Virus record (IMG/VR): IMGVR_UViG_3300030372_000644
Coordinates: 1-33,150 of that record
DNA: 33,150 bases
Reading direction: 5' to 3' (one strand)
Source: a virus
Taxonomy: Duplodnaviria > Caudoviricetes
Shown: piece by piece, positions 18,967-32,860 of the stretch
Layout of the letters: the number at the start of each line of letters is the position of its first letter
How positions within the stretch are numbered: position 1 is the stretch's first letter
Translations under genes and position numbers: made by a program
Notes under the pieces: model-generated
Database searches by the model: none
The model's input: only the letters and a program-made list of their open reading frames with translations
What the model was told of the DNA's origin: nothing

Positions 18967-19672
18967 TATTTACTTCTTGTACATATGCTTTATCTCTTTT
19001 AGCAGGATTCCAATATCTTTCATCTCTCATTTTTGTTTCAATATCACCTTGAGTTAATTGTGCAGGAGTAACTGCTTGACCATTTACTGCCACACCTTGC
19101 ATTTGTTTTTGTATAAACTCTAATGCTTTTATACCTTCAGCACTTGAACCTAATTCAACTATTGCATTGTGATATTCAGGTGGAAAAAACTTATTCATAA
19201 AAAGTTGTGCTGCTTCTACTCTTTGATTAGCATTATCACCTAGTTCTGTTTTGACTGCTTCTAAATCTACTTGCTCTCTATTCACATACTCTGCAAAAGC
19301 ATTGACACCTTCGTTAAACTCATCTTGTGATAAGCCATTATTCCAAGAGTATTTTGCCCACCAATTTAATAATTGATTATCAACAGCTTCTTTTTCATCA
19401 AGTATTTCTGGTATTTGATAATCATCTGCTGATGCAGGTCTTTGTGAAAATGCTTCTTCCTCTAATTCTTTATGAATAATACTTCTTATATCTTCTTCTT
19501 TTTTACCTTTCCATGACTCAAGTTCTCCGTAAGACTTTGCCATATCTTCAGGTGTTGTAAATTTTTCAGGCAACCAATTAGGTCGTGTTGGTTCTGCTAC
19601 TGGTGCAACAGACGGAGGAGTTTCTACTGATTGTTCAGTAGCAGATTCTTGTGTAACTTGTTCTTCACTCAT
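18941..19672 (-). CDS. Capsid assembly (scaffolding) protein
   Basis: RPNWLPEKF..PEDMAKSYGELES motif; acidic; C-terminal M.DERYW motif. Confidence 0.85.
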   Translation of the reverse strand: MSEEQVTQESATEQSVETPPSVAPVAEPTRPNWLPEKFTTPEDMAKSYGELESWKGKKEEDIRSIIHKELEEEAFSQRPASADDYQIPEILDEKEAVDNQLLNWWAKYSWNNGLSQDEFNEGVNAFAEYVNREQVDLEAVKTELGDNANQRVEAAQLFMNKFFPPEYHNAIVELGSSAEGIKALEFIQKQMQGVAVNGQAVTPAQLTQGDIETKMRDERYWNPAKRDKAYVQEVNNDFQKLYG

Positions 19673-19920
19673 GTTTTTATCCTTATTGAATGGTTAATTC
19701 TTTTAACTATTAAAGCAACAATATATCGTTGCCCTTCCAAATGCCGAAGTTCGGCATCTGAAATATTTGGTCCACTTACTGCTTCTACAGTAATAGACTT
19801 CAAATACTTTAAAACCTCTTGACCATTTGGTGTTTTAAAAAGTGATTCTACATCTTTAGATATTCGTTCATCAATTTCTTTAGAACGAGGATATCCGTCA
19901 ACCCCCAAGTGCTGTGGCAT
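19669..19920 (-). CDS. Bbp19-like small protein
   Basis: FKTPNGQEVLKYL...EGQRYIV motif between portal and scaffold. Confidence 0.75.
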   Translation of the reverse strand: MPQHLGVDGYPRSKEIDERISKDVESLFKTPNGQEVLKYLKSITVEAVSGPNISDAELRHLEGQRYIVALIVKRINHSIRIKT

Positions 19921-21712: not shown

Positions 21713-23230
21713 TTACATTCTTGCCCATAATCCTTGTCGTTTTTGTTTAGGTCGTCTGTTAAAAACATCATAATCTGTTCTTGCATTAAATGTTTCAATC
21801 TTTTTATTCATACCTAATACTTGCCTTCCTTCACCTGCACCCAACATAAGATACTGCATAGCATCATGTATATGTGAGTATCGGTCTTTCAAAGGTTTAT
21901 CATCATATCGTTCTCCTGATACCTGAAGTCTACGATATTGATAACCCCCTTCAAATCCTTTTATCAGTTCTTTACACCTAAAGTCAATCAAAATTCCTGA
22001 TAAACCATCAACCATTCTATTTAACACAGAAGCAACCGACTCAATTCGTAAAGAAACATCATTGCTAGAAGTAGGTCTGGCTGTTAATCCTGCACCTCTT
22101 AAAACCTGAAAAGGAGTGGATTCATCTGTTTGTGAACGGAAATCTCCTGCAGGGTCACCAAATATATTTATCTCAAGATTGCTATATCGTGTGGCAATTT
22201 CTGCACGAAGTAACTCTGCAAATCTTACAATGCCCATATCAAATGCCACAATCTCCTGCAAGATTATCCATCTACCTCTAACCTTTTGACCAAAGACAGC
22301 AGCAGGTGTTAATCCAAAATCAAGACCAATATACAATGGAACTCCACTTGCTATTGGTATTTCTTCTTTAGCAACATGAGTATCAGCCACAAACATATTA
22401 TAAACTGGCTTACCATCTTGAATACTACCTAAACGATTCATTACATAGACATCTATCCATGATTTTGTTTTACCCTGAACAAGATTTGTATAGTAAGTCT
22501 TTAAAATATTTTTTGCATTTTCTGCTTTGTCATTTAACTTGTAACCAACAACAGAACCATCTTCATCTTTCTCTTCTATCATGCCACTTGGCTGTGTAAA
22601 GAACTGCCAGTTATCTGGCTTAACTAACATACGACTTTCTTCTAAAGTTATATGATCTGGAACTGGAACTTCACCTGACATGATTGACCACCAATGATCT
22701 TCTTCTGGACTATTGGTATCACATATTACACCTGACCATGTTGCACCTCCGTCTTTAACAGAAGGATATCTACCAACTCTCATAGTACAAGCATCAATAA
22801 TTGACTTGGGTATTTCTCTTGCTTCATTTACCCAAACTCCAGTTAACTCTAATGACAATAATTTTTTCACATCTTCAGGTCTATCAAGAGCAAGAAAGAT
22901 TACTTCCATATCTAATTCACCTTGCTTTATGTAATGTGTATAAGGAACAGACCAAGTAAATCTTCCCCATTCATTTTCAGGAAACCAGTCAAGCCAAGTC
23001 TTTATTGTAGTAGTTCTAAGTTGTGGATTAGTATTTCTTATAACTGCCCACCTTGTTTTTCTTTTACCATGTTGATCTTTATTCTGCATAAGTGAACGTC
23101 TAAACACTTCAATAGAACAAGCAACAGACTTGCCACTTCCTACTGGACCTCTTATGCCACGAAAGAAAGTACTATCTTTCATAAAGTCTTTTAAGATTTG
23201 CCCATCAGGTTTGTATTTAAATTGTATCAA
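21713..23230 (-). CDS. terL: Terminase large subunit
   Basis: Walker A GPVGSGKS, Walker B VWVNEARE, nuclease GLDFG and HIHDAMQY. Confidence 0.95.
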   Translation of the reverse strand: MIQFKYKPDGQILKDFMKDSTFFRGIRGPVGSGKSVACSIEVFRRSLMQNKDQHGKRKTRWAVIRNTNPQLRTTTIKTWLDWFPENEWGRFTWSVPYTHYIKQGELDMEVIFLALDRPEDVKKLLSLELTGVWVNEAREIPKSIIDACTMRVGRYPSVKDGGATWSGVICDTNSPEEDHWWSIMSGEVPVPDHITLEESRMLVKPDNWQFFTQPSGMIEEKDEDGSVVGYKLNDKAENAKNILKTYYTNLVQGKTKSWIDVYVMNRLGSIQDGKPVYNMFVADTHVAKEEIPIASGVPLYIGLDFGLTPAAVFGQKVRGRWIILQEIVAFDMGIVRFAELLRAEIATRYSNLEINIFGDPAGDFRSQTDESTPFQVLRGAGLTARPTSSNDVSLRIESVASVLNRMVDGLSGILIDFRCKELIKGFEGGYQYRRLQVSGERYDDKPLKDRYSHIHDAMQYLMLGAGEGRQVLGMNKKIETFNARTDYDVFNRRPKQKRQGLWARM

Positions 23231-23411
23231 TGTGCGTATTCTTCCCTATACGAATAAATTTTTCTACAATTTCAGGACCAATAGTAGATATAACTTTATC
23301 TGCTTCTCTGTTTGTACAAAACTCTTTAGGGTGATGCTTTAGGTGAACTCGTTTTACAACTTCTCGCAGTATGCGTCTTTCTTCTACTTTTAATGTATGT
23401 AAGAAACTCAT
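23217..23411 (-). CDS. Hypothetical protein
   Basis: Coupled ORF with SD AAGGAG. Confidence 0.7.
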   Translation of the reverse strand: MSFLHTLKVEERRILREVVKRVHLKHHPKEFCTNREADKVISTIGPEIVEKFIRIGKNTHIDTI

Positions 23412-23860
23412 AGTTCTCCTTTTAAAAACATTGCAAAATAATATATACCAAGTCCACCAACTATAGCAACAAACATTACAGCTAATGCTTTCATAATTGC
23501 ATCTTTTTGTTTTGCTTGTTGTTCTAATTGTTTCTTATGTTCGGCTCTTGCCCTTGCTATGGTTGCTTGTAATCTTTCCCATTGACCTGCACTACCATAC
23601 AACTGAAACAAGGAACGAAGTTCTTTTTTTAATCTGGCTTGTTCTTCTTCTTTAAAGTGTTGTTCAATAGCACTATCCATAATGCCACCAAAGATAGACT
23701 TCTTCTTTCTTTCCTTGCCAAACCCTAACTCGGCTTCTGCCTTTGCATATTTTTCAATAGCAGAAGAAGCACTGGCTAAATCTTTGCCCATCTCCACGCA
23801 CTTTTTAATTGCTCCATGTGCAGCAGTCAAAGCACCAAATGCAGATATAGGGTCAATCAT
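23408..23860 (-). CDS. Hypothetical coiled-coil protein with C-terminal TM helix
   Basis: MIDPIS start, helical middle, hydrophobic C-terminus. Confidence 0.7.
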   Translation of the reverse strand: MIDPISAFGALTAAHGAIKKCVEMGKDLASASSAIEKYAKAEAELGFGKERKKKSIFGGIMDSAIEQHFKEEEQARLKKELRSLFQLYGSAGQWERLQATIARARAEHKKQLEQQAKQKDAIMKALAVMFVAIVGGLGIYYFAMFLKGEL

Positions 23861-23869
23861 TTTGTTATC

Positions 23870-24130
23870 CTATGTAAAAGTTCTGTGGCTTTTCGTTTTT
23901 TGTGCAATCTTTCTGGGTTGTTTAGATACTTGTTTACCTTTTCTAATTGCTCTGCGTTTAGCAGCCGAAGTCTTTTTGTATTCAGAGTCAGATAAAGCTT
24001 TAATTGCTTTTTCAGGGAGATACCTTTCGCCAGTAGCTTCACTCCCTTGTGTACTAGGTTTACCAGATTTCGTTCTCCACTTTTGTCTAGTCCATGCACG
24101 AAGTGACCTTTGGGATTTTCCTAAAGTCAT
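23870..24130 (-). CDS. Small basic protein, C-terminal half of a DUF5872-like family
   Basis: QRSLRAWTRQKWRTKSGK...GERYLP...GKQ motif. Confidence 0.7.
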   Translation of the reverse strand: MTLGKSQRSLRAWTRQKWRTKSGKPSTQGSEATGERYLPEKAIKALSDSEYKKTSAAKRRAIRKGKQVSKQPRKIAQKTKSHRTFT

Positions 24131-24303
24131 TATCTGTAACCACCACCTTTGGATTTGTATTCTTTTGCCAACATCTGAGCTTTACGAGCAGACCATTGAC
24201 CTGATGAGCCACCTTTTGTTCCTGCCATAATTTTACGGAAGATAGCTTTTCGCATTGTTGGCTTGGTATAGTTTCCTGCTTCATTAACTTTACTCTTTGT
24301 CAT
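24130..24303 (-). CDS. Small basic protein (57 aa), N-terminal half of a DUF5872-like family; absent from the ORF track
   Basis: Manual translation MTKSKVNEAGNYTKPTMRKAIFRKIMAGTKGGSSGQWSARKAQMLAKEYKSKGGGYR; stop/start overlaps on both sides. Confidence 0.75.
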   Translation of the reverse strand: MTKSKVNEAGNYTKPTMRKAIFRKIMAGTKGGSSGQWSARKAQMLAKEYKSKGGGYR

Positions 24304-24410
24304 TTCTTTTTCTTTACGACCTTTTTCTTTGAAGGTAAAGAAATTTTTTTAATAGCAGCTTTTGGTGGTCTGCCCTTTTTACTTCCATACGTTCCTTTTC
24401 CCATTGGCAT
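24300..24410 (-). CDS. Very basic 36 aa peptide (MPMGKGTYGSKKGRPPK...)
   Basis: SD AAGGAG before ATG at 24410; Lys-rich tail. Confidence 0.7.
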   Translation of the reverse strand: MPMGKGTYGSKKGRPPKAAIKKISLPSKKKVVKKKK

Positions 24411-24423
24411 AGCTTTCTCCTTT

Positions 24424-24720
24424 TTAAGTTTTAGTTTTATTGCGTTTAGAAATTGCTTTAGCTTTCGCCCTAGCACTTGCTTTACTTGAAGCACCCCATG
24501 CTTTAAGCGAGAGTAACAACCTCGTAGGTTTACCTTTAGCATCTCTTTCTGGTCCTTTCATGTTTCCCATTCTTGCAAGAAAACTTGCTCGTCTGGGATT
24601 GTCGCCACTTTTGACTGGAGGTTTAAGAGTACCCTTCTTATAAGAGTCACGACCTTTTTGGTTTAAACCACCTTTAGGATTCTTTCCTTCTTTGCGAGTC
24701 CATGCTTCTGTCTTAGCCAT
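24424..24720 (-). CDS. Small basic protein (DUF6321-like)
   Basis: AWTRKEGKNPKGGLN.KGR...RRASFLARM motif. Confidence 0.72.
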   Translation of the reverse strand: MAKTEAWTRKEGKNPKGGLNQKGRDSYKKGTLKPPVKSGDNPRRASFLARMGNMKGPERDAKGKPTRLLLSLKAWGASSKASARAKAKAISKRNKTKT

Positions 24721-24849
24721 AACGTACCTTTTTTAAAAATAATGTTTGTAAGGGGGGTTGTTGTATAGGTGGCACACACTTTTTTAACCCCCCTGCCACC
24801 ATTAGTAAGCATCCATACCTACAGAGCAGACTGTATGCTGAAAGATCTA

Positions 24850-25221
24850 TCACGACAGATCAATACTTACTTCTATATTACCACTTATCAAGTGCATGGC
24901 TTTATCTATCGGTTTATATCCTGCACGATCTAGTATATCCTTACTAGCTTCAAGCTGAACGTACTCTGATTTAGCTGATGATGCTAGATCAAGAACCTTT
25001 TTACTAGCTATCGTAGCATTCAGTCCTATACTTTCTCTAACTCTTTGTTGCATATATTCTTGTATATGTGGCAACCTCAATGTCTTACTAGCTGTCACTC
25101 TGCCTGATTCCCCATCTGAATATCCTGCTATCTTACTGGCTTTAGTTACAGAACAACCAGTTGCTACAATCGTATCAATCAGTAGCATCTGTTTCTTGGT
25201 TAACTTTCTTTGTGTTAGCAT
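24850..25221 (-). CDS. terS: Terminase small subunit (likely start MLTQRKLT at 25221)
   Basis: LTKKQ...ASKIAGYS HTH-like N-terminus; SEYVQLEASKDILDRAG motif; G-rich SD before 25221. Confidence 0.8.
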   Translation of the reverse strand: MLTQRKLTKKQMLLIDTIVATGCSVTKASKIAGYSDGESGRVTASKTLRLPHIQEYMQQRVRESIGLNATIASKKVLDLASSAKSEYVQLEASKDILDRAGYKPIDKAMHLISGNIEVSIDLS

Positions 25222-25243
25222 CAACACCCCCTTATCCCCCTCT

Positions 25244-25272
25244 TTTATGAACTGCCGAAAATATGTTGTCAA
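25244..25272 (-). promoter_or_regulatory. Candidate sigma70 promoter for the late arm
   Basis: TTGACA (25272-25267), 17 bp spacer, CATAAA (25249-25244) just upstream of the terS SD. Confidence 0.5.
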
Positions 25273-25328
25273 GGGTATTTTTATTATCTTGTAGAATCAA
25301 ACACTTATAGAACACTAAGGAGAACCCC

Positions 25329-25754
25329 TTCGTTATCAGAATGAACTAACTTTGCAAGAGATCCCCAGTAACCTGAAGCATCAATCTCTGATTCGCTAAG
25401 TGGCGAACCAGATATTGTGCAACGGATAACTGCCCAACCTCTTCCCCTCTTGCAAAGTTCTTATCATCCTGATAAGCGAATCTCATATTTACAGAAATAT
25501 TGTATATATATCTAATTGGTATACGAACCAATTAGATATATGTTCTTACATAACTCGCAAGAACCAACGAGTTGTTTTTTGGGGATGCAAATCAAGTGCT
25601 CGGTATCTTATCATACGAGTAAAGGGTAGCATGATTACTATGAGTATGTCATCAAACTGATTGTAATCATGCTATGAACAAGTTCACTTCGCCCTTGACT
25701 CGCATGGGAGAGCAAACAGCGAAAGATTTGCAGACCCAAAAAACGTCTGTAAAT
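25329..25754. ncRNA. Candidate large structured RNA (or ssDNA) element
   Basis: Many nested inverted repeats, including perfect 13, 15, 12 and 9 bp stems and an 18/20 stem; no credible ORF. Confidence 0.6.
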
Positions 25755-25790
25755 TTATACATTAATATCAAAATATGAAAGGAAAATGAT

Positions 25791-26303
25791 ATGACAAATG
25801 TAAATACAAAAATAGAAGATATGGTACTATCACTAGGAGATATTTTCAACTATGGACAACTTGACAATCCAAACAAAGAAACTACCTTTGATGGAAAGAC
25901 AAACCCTAAATATAACAGCGACATTGTTTACATGTTCGGTGGTATTATCAGTCAAATAGCTTGGAGTTTAAACCAAAAGAAACCTTATGCTGATACTAAC
26001 CAAGCTAAATGGATTCAAGAAAAGGAAAACAATCCTGATAATCCTAATCCTGATATTCAAGAAAGACATGAACAGTCATTAGGTGCTATGGAGAATCTTC
26101 ATGCACTTTATGAATTTAATGTTCAATGCTTCAATACATTCTCTACATGGACATGGAACAATGGGAAGTCAACAGATGATTATGGTATGAAATGGTATGC
26201 TGAACATAGAGATCAGATATCAGATTCAAGATCATTTGGCAAGACATCAAGTCCTGAAGATAAAAAGAAAGCTTTGATGAAGCAACTTGCAAAATCTAAA
26301 TAA
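25791..26303 (+). CDS. Hypothetical protein, first gene of the early arm
   Basis: 170 aa ORF with SD AAAGGA, followed by a terminator. Confidence 0.8.
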   Translation: MTNVNTKIEDMVLSLGDIFNYGQLDNPNKETTFDGKTNPKYNSDIVYMFGGIISQIAWSLNQKKPYADTNQAKWIQEKENNPDNPNPDIQERHEQSLGAMENLHALYEFNVQCFNTFSTWTWNNGKSTDDYGMKWYAEHRDQISDSRSFGKTSSPEDKKKALMKQLAKSK

Positions 26304-26307
26304 CATC

Positions 26308-26335
26308 AAGAGGGAGTTCGCTCCCTCTTTTTTTT
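26308..26335 (+). terminator. Rho-independent terminator
   Basis: AAGAGGGAG-TTCG-CTCCCTCTT followed by a T-run. Confidence 0.9.
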
Positions 26336-26509
26336 ATGTCTAGTAAATGTACAAAGCTTCGCAATGTATATTTATTGTATTGCTAAAGCAATCATGCTTC
26401 GCATAGTTCTACAGATGCAGAACCACATCAAGTAGGGAAGTGTAACTCATGCGTGTAATCGCTTGGGTGTGCAAAATTCAACTCATCATTTTCAATTAGG
26501 AATCAAATT

Positions 26510-27131: not shown

Positions 27132-27156
27132 AACGATTCACAACATGGAGGTTACA

Positions 27157-28017
27157 ATGAATCATATAGAATCAATCAATAAAATAGTTGGTTATGAAAA
27201 TGACTATTCTTTTCCAATAGAAACTATACCAATGAAAGGTATGCTAGAATATGACACAGTAAATTGCCCTGATAGAATAATGATTATCAATGCAAATACC
27301 AATGAGTATCTAGGTAATCATTCAACTGCATACAGACCAGTTACAAACTCACAAATAGTAGATCCAATCAAAAATATACTAGCTGATGTATCAAATGAGT
27401 TTGTGCCACAGATAAAGACTTACGACAATGGCTCAATGATGTTGGCAAGGTTTACTTGTCGTGACATAAGGATCAAAGATCCAAGCAAAGATGATTACAT
27501 TGCATTTCAAGTTACAGTTCGTAACTCATACAATGGAGTGTGGTCTATTATGATTAATGCAGCAGGTCTACGATTATGGTGTATGAATGGGTGTACTACA
27601 GCAGATAGAGTGGCTAACTTCAGACTCAAACATAATGGTCATTTCAAATATAACTTTGACCATCTAAAACATTCAATTGATTTCTTTCATACCAATGAAC
27701 AGAGATATATGAAATGGGCAAACACTAGAGTTTCAGAGTGGGATGTTGAACGAATGTTTAATAAACTAACCTATACTGCAAGGCCTACCATTGACGGAAA
27801 GTATAGAAACGAAACACAATTCTATAATCTTATGCAGCAATGGAGAAACTATCGTGCAGATATGGGTGCAACTAAATGGTCATTGTATAATGCAGTCACT
27901 CATTGGATATCACATCCAGTTCAAGTATCTAACCCACACAAAACTGTTGTGGAAAGAGAAAGTAAACTTATCAGTTACATGAATAAATCAGATTCGTTAT
28001 TAAAGGAGGTTGCGTAA
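27157..28017 (+). CDS. DUF932/DUF945-family phage/plasmid protein
   Basis: YLGNHSTAYRPVTN, NSYNG...LRLWCMNG, TKWSLYNAVT motifs; SD GGAGGT gives start at 27157. Confidence 0.85.
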   Translation: MNHIESINKIVGYENDYSFPIETIPMKGMLEYDTVNCPDRIMIINANTNEYLGNHSTAYRPVTNSQIVDPIKNILADVSNEFVPQIKTYDNGSMMLARFTCRDIRIKDPSKDDYIAFQVTVRNSYNGVWSIMINAAGLRLWCMNGCTTADRVANFRLKHNGHFKYNFDHLKHSIDFFHTNEQRYMKWANTRVSEWDVERMFNKLTYTARPTIDGKYRNETQFYNLMQQWRNYRADMGATKWSLYNAVTHWISHPVQVSNPHKTVVERESKLISYMNKSDSLLKEVA

Positions 28018-29270: not shown

Positions 29271-29476
29271 GTAGATACAAAGACTTAATCATTGAATGGG
29301 AAGAAAAAGTAAGGTGGATAGAAGATTATCCAACATGGATAGAAGATGCTGAAAATGTATCAGAAGTTGTTGCCCATGTAGTAGATCATTTAGATTTAAA
29401 ATATGAAACAGATATCAGTCATGTGGTACAAATATGCACAGAAGATATGAATGAATATTGGAGCAGATACATATGA
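29267..29476 (+). CDS. Acidic hypothetical protein
   Basis: SD AAGGAGG, GTG start overlapping the previous stop. Confidence 0.7.
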   Translation: MSRYKDLIIEWEEKVRWIEDYPTWIEDAENVSEVVAHVVDHLDLKYETDISHVVQICTEDMNEYWSRYI

Positions 29477-29739
29477 AACTATCAAAAGATTGGCAACCAA
29501 GCCAAGCAGTCATGCAACAACACAAGGAGGTAAACCATGACAGAGAAATTAAATACTTCAAACATTTCTATATTACTAACCAATACGAAAGATCAGACTG
29601 GAATCAGGTCTATCGTCAATGGTGTGACAGACAAAGTAAAAGCAAAAACTTTGTTGGAACAAGGAAACTCAAACCCAAACCAAGTAACCAAAGCGACAGT
29701 TTCTATCATAGAGTCCATACTGCAATGCAAGATAAATGA
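29473..29739 (+). CDS. DnaT-like / replication-initiator C-terminal domain protein
   Basis: LSKDWQPS...EIKYFKHFY...SDWNQVYRQW pattern; ATGA coupling at 29473. Confidence 0.6.
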   Translation: MKLSKDWQPSQAVMQQHKEVNHDREIKYFKHFYITNQYERSDWNQVYRQWCDRQSKSKNFVGTRKLKPKPSNQSDSFYHRVHTAMQDK

Positions 29740-31185: not shown

Positions 31186-31689
31186 ATGACAGATACTAAA
31201 ACTAATATCAAGAAACCAGTCCAAAGTAAAGTGTATAACTTAAAGACTGCTATGCTTGAGTTCCAAAAACTTGCTGTTTCTGCAAAGAAAGATGGCAAGA
31301 ACCCACACTTTAAAAGTAATTACTCTACACTAGAGTCAGTTATTACAGCAGTAAATCAAGGCAATCAGTTTGGCTTATTTTTCACGCAAGAAATTGATTA
31401 TGTATATGTAAGTCACAGAGAAACTATGTCAGAAGTAGTAGTTGTTACTACTGTAAGACATATCAATGATGAAGCTGCATACGTATCAAAGTTACCTATC
31501 ATATTATCTCAAACTAATATGGAGAACCCACAGAAAATTGGTAGTGCTATTACCTATGCAAAAAGATATACATTGCAATCTGTATATGGACTACCATCAG
31601 AAGATGATGATGGTAATAAAGCATCAGAGCCAACGATTAACATAAGTAATTCCAAGAAATCAGAAGGAGTTGAAGATGACGGATTATGA
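31186..31689 (+). CDS. erf: ERF-family single-strand annealing protein
   Basis: KNPHFKSNYSTL and PQKIGSAITYAKRYTL..VYGL.SEDDDG signature. Confidence 0.92.
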   Translation: MTDTKTNIKKPVQSKVYNLKTAMLEFQKLAVSAKKDGKNPHFKSNYSTLESVITAVNQGNQFGLFFTQEIDYVYVSHRETMSEVVVVTTVRHINDEAAYVSKLPIILSQTNMENPQKIGSAITYAKRYTLQSVYGLPSEDDDGNKASEPTINISNSKKSEGVEDDGL

Positions 31690-32125
31690 TAACACAGACA
31701 GAGGTAGTCTATTCAAACCTAGAGCAGATGAAAGTCTGCTCGTACAAGGCAAACTAAATAGTCAGGGTGATGAGTTTAGATTAGTAGTAGTCAAAGCATC
31801 ATTACCTGATGGTAACACAGCAAGAGATGTGTACCAAAAGGTAGGCACAATGTATGAGAATGACACAGCATTGAATGAAAAATCACCAGACTTTAGTGGG
31901 CCAATCACATTAGGAGGACAAGACAAACGTAGAATAGCAGCATGGAAAACTGTATCTAAAGATGGCAACACAAAGTTCTTGTCTTGTAGGATAGGCGACT
32001 CAACACCAAGACAAATTGCAGAAAAAGAATTAGGAGTATATGATGACGTTGTTACTACTGCAACAGTTCTTGAACATCAGGAAGTAGATTTAGGAGGGGA
32101 GAATCCAGATGACATCCCATTCTAA
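31676..32125 (+). CDS. ssDNA-binding-like protein (DUF736-like)
   Basis: YDNTDRGSLF, NEKSPDFSG, AAWK, acidic C-terminal DDIPF tail; follows ERF. Confidence 0.72.
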   Translation: MTDYDNTDRGSLFKPRADESLLVQGKLNSQGDEFRLVVVKASLPDGNTARDVYQKVGTMYENDTALNEKSPDFSGPITLGGQDKRRIAAWKTVSKDGNTKFLSCRIGDSTPRQIAEKELGVYDDVVTTATVLEHQEVDLGGENPDDIPF

Positions 32126-32309: not shown

Positions 32310-32630
32310 ATGACTGCAAGAGCAAGAACGCATGACCCAAAGACTTCATGGGATGCAGCAGGTAAAGTAAATACAAATCGTTTAGAAAAATTAGTATTAG
32401 ATTGCATCATTGCACATGGAGAACATGGTGCAATACATGATGATGTATGGGAAACTTTACCACAAGTAACAACTAAAGGTGGAATATCTGCTTATGTAAG
32501 AGAAGGTAGTATCACACCACGATATGCAACACTTGAAAAGAAAGGATTTATATATCGTGATGGCACTACACGCAAAGGTAAGATGGGTAGAAGCCAACTT
32601 GTTATGTATTTTAAAAGCAATAAAGCTTGA
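32310..32630 (+). CDS. Winged-helix-like phage protein
   Basis: ARTHDPKTSWDAA...TPRYATLEKKGFI...GRSQLV; SD AGGAGGT. Confidence 0.75.
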   Translation: MTARARTHDPKTSWDAAGKVNTNRLEKLVLDCIIAHGEHGAIHDDVWETLPQVTTKGGISAYVREGSITPRYATLEKKGFIYRDGTTRKGKMGRSQLVMYFKSNKA

Positions 32631-32639
32631 TTTAAGAGC

Positions 32640-32671
32640 CATACAGAGGGGGTAACCACCCTCTCTGTATG
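32640..32671 (+). other. 14 bp hairpin (processing site or terminator)
   Basis: CATACAGAGGGGGT-AACC-ACCCTCTCTGTATG, one G-U, no U-tract. Confidence 0.6.
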
Positions 32672-32698
32672 ATTACACCCTAGAAATAAGGAGTTATG

Positions 32699-32860
32699 AT
32701 GTCATGTGACACAGATAAAGGTATATATATTGTACCAGTAGCAGGTGCGATACGCATTTATATAGATACAGAACTGCATGAAGTTAAAATGACAAGAGAT
32801 GATATGGCAGATTTAGCTACTGAAATCCTTGCAAGAAGAATTGAAATGAAAGGAAAATAA
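32699..32860 (+). CDS. Small hypothetical protein (53 aa; alternative ATG at 32696); allele of 231-392
   Basis: SD AAGGAG; conserved frame with synonymous changes relative to the left-end copy. Confidence 0.75.
   Translation: MSCDTDKGIYIVPVAGAIRIYIDTELHEVKMTRDDMADLATEILARRIEMKGK

Follow-up and report, generated by a model that had tools for sequence, protein, structure and literature searches.

What folds, and to what end, in the gap between the divergent late and early genes of a podophage? The window, by which we mean the whole stretch of DNA analysed, is a near-complete podophage genome (33,150 nt, IMGVR_UViG_3300030372_000644) encoding the late genes terS, terL, portal, capsid, tail, and lysis on the minus strand and early genes (DUF932, resolvase, RecE-like, ERF, and SSB-like) on the plus strand. 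A structured element (25329-25754) fills the gap between a terS promoter-like site and ORF1, the first early gene (Table 1). Among cultured phages the nearest is Pelagibacter phage EXVC031P Hodr (OQ414635), which has the same gene order (terL 64%, portal 59%, terS 53%), and the host of the window phage is therefore probably SAR11. The ORF1 protein is predicted to form a helical hairpin (AF2 pLDDT 87.6, 32 sequences) and forms 45 clusters at 50% identity in the metagenome library; it has one viral homologue (TM 0.85) and no PHROG, Pfam, or PDB match. Comparison with Gam-like and other known proteins gave no match, and such an assignment was dropped; a role in anti-defence or end protection is guessed from its position. 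Short, very basic ORFs cluster between terS and terL (23217-24720, minus strand).

Table 1. Window coordinates of the structured element, its parts, and the neighboring features
Feature	Position	Strand	Description
Domain 1	25329-25480	-	Helix with an internal loop that is invariant and G-rich, then short helices and an apical hairpin that varies
Domain-1 stem	25348-60/25447-59		13/13 paired
Closing helix and side hairpins 25506-41, 25552-73	25487-25754		Vary between relatives
Domain-2 closing helix	25487-95/25746-54		9/9 paired
Domain-2 hairpin stem	25506-20/25527-41		15/15 paired
Rod, 171 nt	25574-25744	-	Lower helix, 18x18-nt bubble, upper helix, three-way junction with side hairpin, 12-bp apical helix
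Rod lower helix	25574-93/25725-44		18/20 paired, the two mismatches adjacent
Rod apical helix	25627-38/25663-74		12/12 paired
Extended -10 box, TG-A-TAAGAT	25605-25613	-	TG paired, hexamer at bubble lip
Bubble, non-template side, 18 nt	25594-25611	-	About -13 to +5; 17-23 nt in 18/19 clade sequences
Bubble, template side, 18 nt	25707-25724	-	15-19 nt in 18/19 clade sequences
TTGACT, -35-like, conserved	25695-25700	+	No conserved -10 behind; conserved T-C mismatch in minus-strand fold
ORF1, 170 aa	25791-26303	+	Monocistronic first early gene, helical hairpin
ORF1 intrinsic terminator	26308-26337	+	UUCG loop; positive RNA control
terS	24850-25221	-	PF03592 E=1e-7, phrog_2538; probable ATG 25221
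terS promoter-like site	25227-25272	-	TTGACA 25272-67, 17-18 nt, -10 without -7T, then G-rich leader
G-run/A-run ... ACAAC ... ACAAACATT motif	24738-24793	-	Just past terS stop, before other late genes; 34/40 by pattern

A sequence-only reading had put the element forward as a candidate large, multi-domain, structured noncoding RNA of an undescribed kind. Five of its listed stems were borne out by a base-pair check of the window sequence (Table 1), as was a small hairpin of six Watson-Crick pairs (25552-57/25568-73), and the minimum free energy fold contains, with bulges, both the outer domain-1 stem and a further stem at 25606-26/25692-711. The folding energy lies beyond that of shuffled sequences, with RNA fold z-scores of -11.5 (plus) and -11.2 (minus) and 0/100 shuffles as stable on either strand; the lowest-z window among 220 across the 33 kb falls in the element. 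The tandem GA mismatch of the rod is present in the window but is not conserved, being a single mismatch in two relatives (L081 and L082) and perfectly paired in another (L048). Assembly artefact was ruled out by contigs with 0 differences spanning the element in runs X2 (24614-26500), which belongs to the study that is also the possible source, and X3 (24436-26057), from a separate study. A search of 4227 Rfam families, including 6S, GOLLD, ROOL, OLE, HEARO, and ribozymes, gave no match at the gathering score, the best match at the E-value threshold being a miRNA with E=0.13. BLASTN against cultured phages returned chance matches only, of 25-38 nt, and there was no motif or contig match in four supplement files of the viral structured RNAs of Fremin et al. 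(PMC10690425).

Patterns from terS match ~1300 IMG/VR stretches. Relatives were gathered from the best 80 of at least 600 terS loci, two ORF1 loci, Hodr, and pattern matches (18, 30, and 8 loci); of the 30 matches to the domain-2 pattern, about half had arisen by chance in unrelated sequence and were removed. Among 83 terS-bearing sequences, including the window and Hodr (L083), the intergenic region could be parsed in 74, with nine left out, and these 74 were thinned to 40 nonredundant representatives (hereafter lineages) in 21 sequence clusters. The ORF1 start was set by hand in nine sequences, in three of which it is probably too far upstream. The terS-ORF1 gap ranges from 244 to 1048 nt and is highly diverse in sequence, and the relatives bear out, by covariation, that the structure is selected. 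Counted in 260-nt windows, z falls below -4 in a share of 0.38 at -300 from the terS start, 0.23 at both -500 and -100, 0.10 at +100, and 0-0.03 from +300 onward; the folding stays within about -1100 to +360 of that start. No comparable zone was found in HTVC010P, MEP301, or Vibrio phage 1.138.O, where z<-4 occurred in 1/265, 0/266, and 1/249 windows, respectively, the divergent junction of HTVC010P being divided by the record ends and hence outside the scanned windows.

Other strongly folded windows, in or between genes, occur at 19651-19850 (z -7.3; a series of late-strand hairpins within a Bbp19-like gene), 31651-31850 (-6.0), and 32551-32750 (-4.7). In about a quarter of lineages, the terS start or coding sequence (first 100-360 nt) is itself strongly folded (L009, L010, L028, L031, L034, L035, L037, L045, L046, L063, and L083). 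Four lineages (L028, L034, L035, and L045) have a second folded zone ~1100-1300 nt upstream of terS. This second zone follows the ORF1 terminator (z -7 to -12) and is also found in L011, where a hairpin loop resembling that at window positions 25558-67 reappears, and in L081, where it holds a copy of that sequence's domain-1 apical hairpin.

The strand that folds was indeterminable from the window sequence alone, as the sequence-only reading had noted, with G-U pairs numbering 8 vs 9, and RNA and DNA energy models failed to separate the strands (DNA, -93.8 vs -92.9). Wobble pairs in the relatives were informative. Single mismatches between Watson-Crick pairs were counted in helices found on both strands with G-T pairing disabled. 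Read on the plus strand, the 40 lineages gave 58 A-C vs 16 G-T mismatches (P=1e-6, or P=0.0012 when corrected for unpaired composition, which predicts a ratio of 1.5), and helices with one arm in the ORF1 ribosome-binding site (RBS) or coding start gave 28:5 (P=0.004 against arm composition), all of these P values being optimistic because the lineages share kinship. The A-C excess is present in 24 lineages and reversed in four, and the plus-strand ratio is 30:5 in intergenic helices and 16:1 in the 11-member window clade. As a control, 26 distinct ORF1 terminators gave 17 G-T and 0 A-C on the plus strand; within the terS coding region the same test gave 1 vs 1, without signal. The selected fold is therefore that of the minus strand, which is the template of ORF1. 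The asymmetry is equally compatible with a minus-strand RNA.

On the minus strand, the 5′ arm of the rod (high coordinates) is the ORF1 template and the 3′ arm carries an extended -10 box. The upper helix covaries on both arms within the window clade, and TG-n-TA-nnn-T ends the terS-side arm in 14 of 15 distinct clade sequences, its middle bases variable (TATAAT in three) and its own columns invariant in one alignment; no -10 was found on the sense strand opposite the bubble in this clade. A bubble of about -13 to +5 has the size of an open complex in sigma-70 geometry. Across the 40 lineages, TGnTAnnnT is enriched on the minus strand (76 vs 42.7±6.0 in shuffled sequence) and not on the plus (39 vs 34.4±5.8), and ordinary -35/-10 pairs are enriched on neither strand, including those that could serve ORF1 (35 vs 43±7). 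The stem-bubble-stem, promoter-mimic geometry that had been likened to 6S RNA is supported, as is the suggestion of a single-stranded DNA (ssDNA) structure. Among 18 matches on the non-template arm, 16 have the partner of the TG 56-90 nt before the ORF1 ATG, a range picked after inspection; the sense strand lacks the motif in 14 and carries it too in the other four. In L037, L046, and L063 the -11A is found on the non-template arm only, as a mismatch. The rod also pairs with at least 25 nt, and up to ~150 nt, of the ORF1 RBS and coding start in 22/40 lineages.

From this evidence we propose, at roughly even confidence, that the rod is a fold-back ssDNA promoter or priming site of the Frpo type in a double-stranded DNA (dsDNA) podophage. 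When single-stranded, the minus strand is predicted to take the shape of a promoter that is already open; host sigma-70 polymerase would recognize the TGnTAnnnT box at the lip of the bubble and transcribe ORF1 from about 25720-22, an inferred start ~70 nt ahead of its ATG, to its terminator, the transcript serving as mRNA or primer. Where the rod pairs into the ORF1 start, that pairing would act as the downstream promoter duplex. The sequences show the fold and the strand on which it forms, the conservation of the box, the geometry of the bubble, and a location ahead of ORF1; that the folded molecule is DNA, that polymerase binds it, and that the transcript is put to use are parts that we infer. 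Several results count against it. The motif occupies the non-template arm in 9/21 lineage clusters and is missing from the other 12; no conserved -35 was found 16-18 nt from the box in the window clade, although another clade shows TTGAC/TTTAC-16-TAAAAC; the -11A is unpaired in 7/18 matches, which is not significant (P=0.10); and this tailed phage has no evident ssDNA phase. Neither a relaxase or HUH protein nor an RNA polymerase of phage origin was detected among the scanned ORFs.

The main rival, which we consider unlikely though by no means negligible, is a phage 6S-like RNA: the minus strand would be transcribed through both arms, possibly antisense to ORF1 as well, and the 170-nt rod would sequester or reprogram host sigma-70 polymerase. 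The minus-strand G-U wobbles and the covariation suit such an RNA, and the rod fits the account of 6S in PMC8876501 in its size, in having a closing stem and a central bubble, and in a 3′ bubble that resembles a -10. It has no Rfam match, however, and in 22/40 lineages its closing stem extends into the coding sequence of ORF1, which a free decoy RNA would not need. We found no conserved minus-strand promoter in the first 300 nt of ORF1, and minus-strand terminators in just 3/41 intergenic regions with a scan that recovers 25/35 ORF1 terminators. GNRA or UNCG tetraloops close 3/46 hairpins on either strand vs 9/12 in terminators, and two-base YYNR loops, which prefer DNA, number 9/46 on the minus vs 1/46 on the plus strand. 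The rarity of RNA tetraloops, the missing minus-strand promoter, the few minus-strand terminators, and a template arm that reaches into ORF1 at a kept distance together lean toward DNA rather than RNA, none of the four being proof. Sequenced RNA adds little: one RNA-library contig (25683-25838, depth 3.3, unstranded) starts ~37 nt upstream of the predicted start and is either a weak point against a fold-back promoter or DNA carry-over, and run X13 gave 10 low-depth contigs over 7 kb and runs X21 and X23 none, leaving the element mostly uncovered, which counts neither for nor against a transcript, in unstranded data from which no level can be read.

Domain 1 behaves differently from the rod. 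It is present in 12 of the 83 terS/ORF1 loci plus the window, accompanied or not by this rod, and is therefore a separate, swappable module. This separation makes a single 430-nt multi-domain noncoding RNA doubtful, as do the rare RNA tetraloops and the failure to find a flanking promoter or terminator. The domain-1 helix covaries, with both partners altered in 8/18 pairs, pairing kept in 99.5% of cells, and 0/500 shuffles reaching this in 11 sequences whose kinship may inflate the figure, and one pair alternates between T-G and G-C, which is valid on the minus strand only. The nearly invariant internal loop sets a 14-nt side (25446-25433) opposite a 5-nt side (~25366-25362), both G-rich on the minus strand. 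Four G-tracts are invariant in 11/11 sequences, and a quadruplex-aware fold chose no quadruplex. The G-rich terS leader (25227-25242, minus strand) is similar to the invariant domain-1 loop (25433-25453, minus strand), which is also rich in G, and the two could share a binding protein. The terS promoter-like site itself was aligned in all 40 lineages with TTGACA as the alignment anchor, its 40/40 occurrence hence being by construction.

Read in duplex DNA, domain 1 lies downstream of the -10 box of the rod, and a fold-back promoter leaves domain 1 without explanation. The box could be an ordinary leftward duplex promoter starting at ~25597, its leader RNA, with hairpins and domain 1, controlling terS and the late operon; the rod would then be a secondary control or attenuation structure, and a two-tier quadruplex might form in the G-rich loop. 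In duplex DNA the box cannot but be an extended -10 facing left, the strand so read is the one on which domain 1 folds and has its covarying U-G/G-C pair, and in some lineages a stem encloses the terS promoter and start. As a full account of the element this is nonetheless distinctly improbable: such an RNA would lack the other arm of the rod, yet both arms covary and the bubble size is kept; domain 1 is found in just 12/83 loci; and the quadruplex did not appear in the fold that allowed for it. A leftward leader is compatible with the fold-back promoter, in which the same box, once in duplex DNA, would drive transcription to the left, across domain 1 in the direction of terS, and domain 1 may act as RNA even if the rod is DNA. 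Combining the two gives a broader scheme, offered tentatively and with less assurance than the fold-back promoter itself, in which an abundant lineage of marine dsDNA podophages would bare one strand for ~1 kb where the genome enters first and use one sigma-70 -10 box as a switch on DNA state, firing rightward into ORF1, as an immediate-early gene, from folded ssDNA and leftward from the duplex, via the G-rich RNA module, into the packaging genes.

Such a scheme calls for a source of ssDNA, and resection of the entering genome end in the 5′-3′ direction or displacement during replication are speculative ones. The ACAAACATT motif is a candidate terminase (genome-end) site. If it were that, packaging would end, and entry begin, with terS, the element, and ORF1, and 5′-3′ resection would then bare the minus strand over the folding zone, its 3′ end lying there. 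Contig ends showed no sharp peak at this proposed genome end (24 upstream and 39 downstream true ends). PMC10504331 suggests that Skadi, a more distant phage, replicates by rolling circle and has its terminal repeats at terL, and nothing on termini or noncoding elements was found in the accessible portion of the HTVC010P-type paper (PMC8477408). The folded zone beyond the ORF1 terminator in some lineages is possibly a second fold-back site.

The element might instead be a DNA structure for replication or packaging, such as a single-strand origin, a primosome site, or a hairpin that protects the end or primes itself, with no part in expressing ORF1. We found no polymerase or primase genes, and a DnaT-like domain, RecE-like, ERF, and SSB-like genes are present, all of which would suit such a structure, as would a folded zone that stops at terS. 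Such a structure would not need to lie at a fixed 56-90 nt from where ORF1 starts, however, and no strand-switch joints (hairpin ends or inversions) were found in four DNA runs, whose contigs lose rare forms, and we judge this explanation to have only a small chance of being right; a priming role belongs to the fold-back promoter too. The DnaT-like domain of the window is a stand-alone 93 aa protein (29458-29739, plus strand) that overlaps the next ORF and scores below the Pfam cut-off (E=3e-4), and that of Hodr (E=4e-6) is fused to a helix-turn-helix (HTH) (L083 2009-2536). Least probable by far is that the ORF1 mRNA begins with a structured leader, as had been suggested for the first early gene, and that this hides its ribosome-binding site: the rod does pair with the RBS and start in 22/40 lineages and the plus strand folds well too, but the fold is on the template strand of that gene and is therefore not the leader of its mRNA, upstream plus-strand promoters are not enriched, and the wobble counts (28 A-C vs 5 G-U on the mRNA strand, where plus-strand RNA hairpins give 0 vs 17) already largely refute it.

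If the fold-back promoter is real, early infection by a dsDNA phage passes through an ssDNA stage, and the state of the DNA sets the timing of the first gene; should the 6S-like RNA be real instead, a phage encodes a polymerase decoy RNA. Either can be tested directly, a cultured member, Hodr on HTCC1062, being available. Hodr has a rod of ~500 nt in the equivalent position, with TGTTATTAT on both arms, but its element has no sequence similarity to that of the window, and its rod spans the terS promoter and ~150 nt of ORF1. The Hodr ArdC gene (L083 3510-4394), in the early arm, sits about where the window has DUF932 (27145-28017), as do 12/12 tested relatives, which suggests an exchangeable anti-defence slot.

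Among known systems, phage N4 is a dsDNA podophage in which template-strand hairpins are early promoters, used by a virion polymerase and very short. The present element resembles it as a template-strand hairpin ahead of an early gene in a dsDNA podophage, and differs in its host sigma-70 signature, its rod of 170-500 nt, and the lack of a detected phage RNA polymerase. The ssoA-type single-strand origins of rolling-circle plasmids are strand-specific imperfect rods, poorly conserved in sequence, at which RNA polymerase primes. The phage rod is likewise strand-specific, imperfect, and variable in sequence, and polymerase priming is proposed for it here; no rolling-circle Rep was seen, however, and the spacing to a terminated ORF is fixed. 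6S RNA, a rod of ~200 nt with a -10-like 3′ bubble (PMC8876501), is similar in rod length (171 vs ~200 nt), central bubble, 3′-side -10-like element, and 5′-side template. The phage rod differs in that it matches no Rfam model, that neither a promoter nor a terminator was found to flank it, and that its RNA tetraloops are few, and in overlapping the start of a protein gene in antisense in many lineages.

The closest counterparts are promoters for host polymerase on ssDNA, which are described for conjugative plasmids in PMC11541004 and PMC12672017 and in work of Masai and Arai (1997) as cited in the Frpo/ssi/ssp papers; a search that excluded most subscription papers found no description of such a promoter, or of a 6S-like RNA, in tailed dsDNA phages or pelagiphages. 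Four sources (PMC11541004, PMC12672017, PMC13478746, and bioRxiv 10.64898/2026.01.09.698686) describe promoters of the Frpo type as stem-loops of the plasmid ssDNA that is transferred, in which promoter boxes are rebuilt, whose duplex form is inactive for their genes, and which can prime synthesis. The phage element shares with Frpo, ssi, and ssp a long imperfect template-strand stem-loop just upstream of an early gene, a promoter box rebuilt in the fold with the -10 on the non-template arm (14/15 in the clade, 9/21 clusters), and, in Hodr, a nearby ArdC-type gene. ArdC is an ssDNA-binding anti-restriction protein (PMC7213743) and is among the top-100 plasmid leading-region families (PMC11541004 supplement); DUF932 is absent by name from the text and tables of PMC11541004. 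The published ssDNA promoters have a -35 (PMC12672017), whereas the phage stem has no conserved -35 box 16-18 nt upstream in the window clade; the phage element also has a large pre-melted bubble, is shown here at one site per genome, and belongs to a dsDNA podophage rather than to an oriT-linked leading region, with no oriT or relaxase seen and its promoter function predicted. Although it lacks two Frpo features, the -35 and the oriT-linked leading region, the element likely works like a Frpo promoter.
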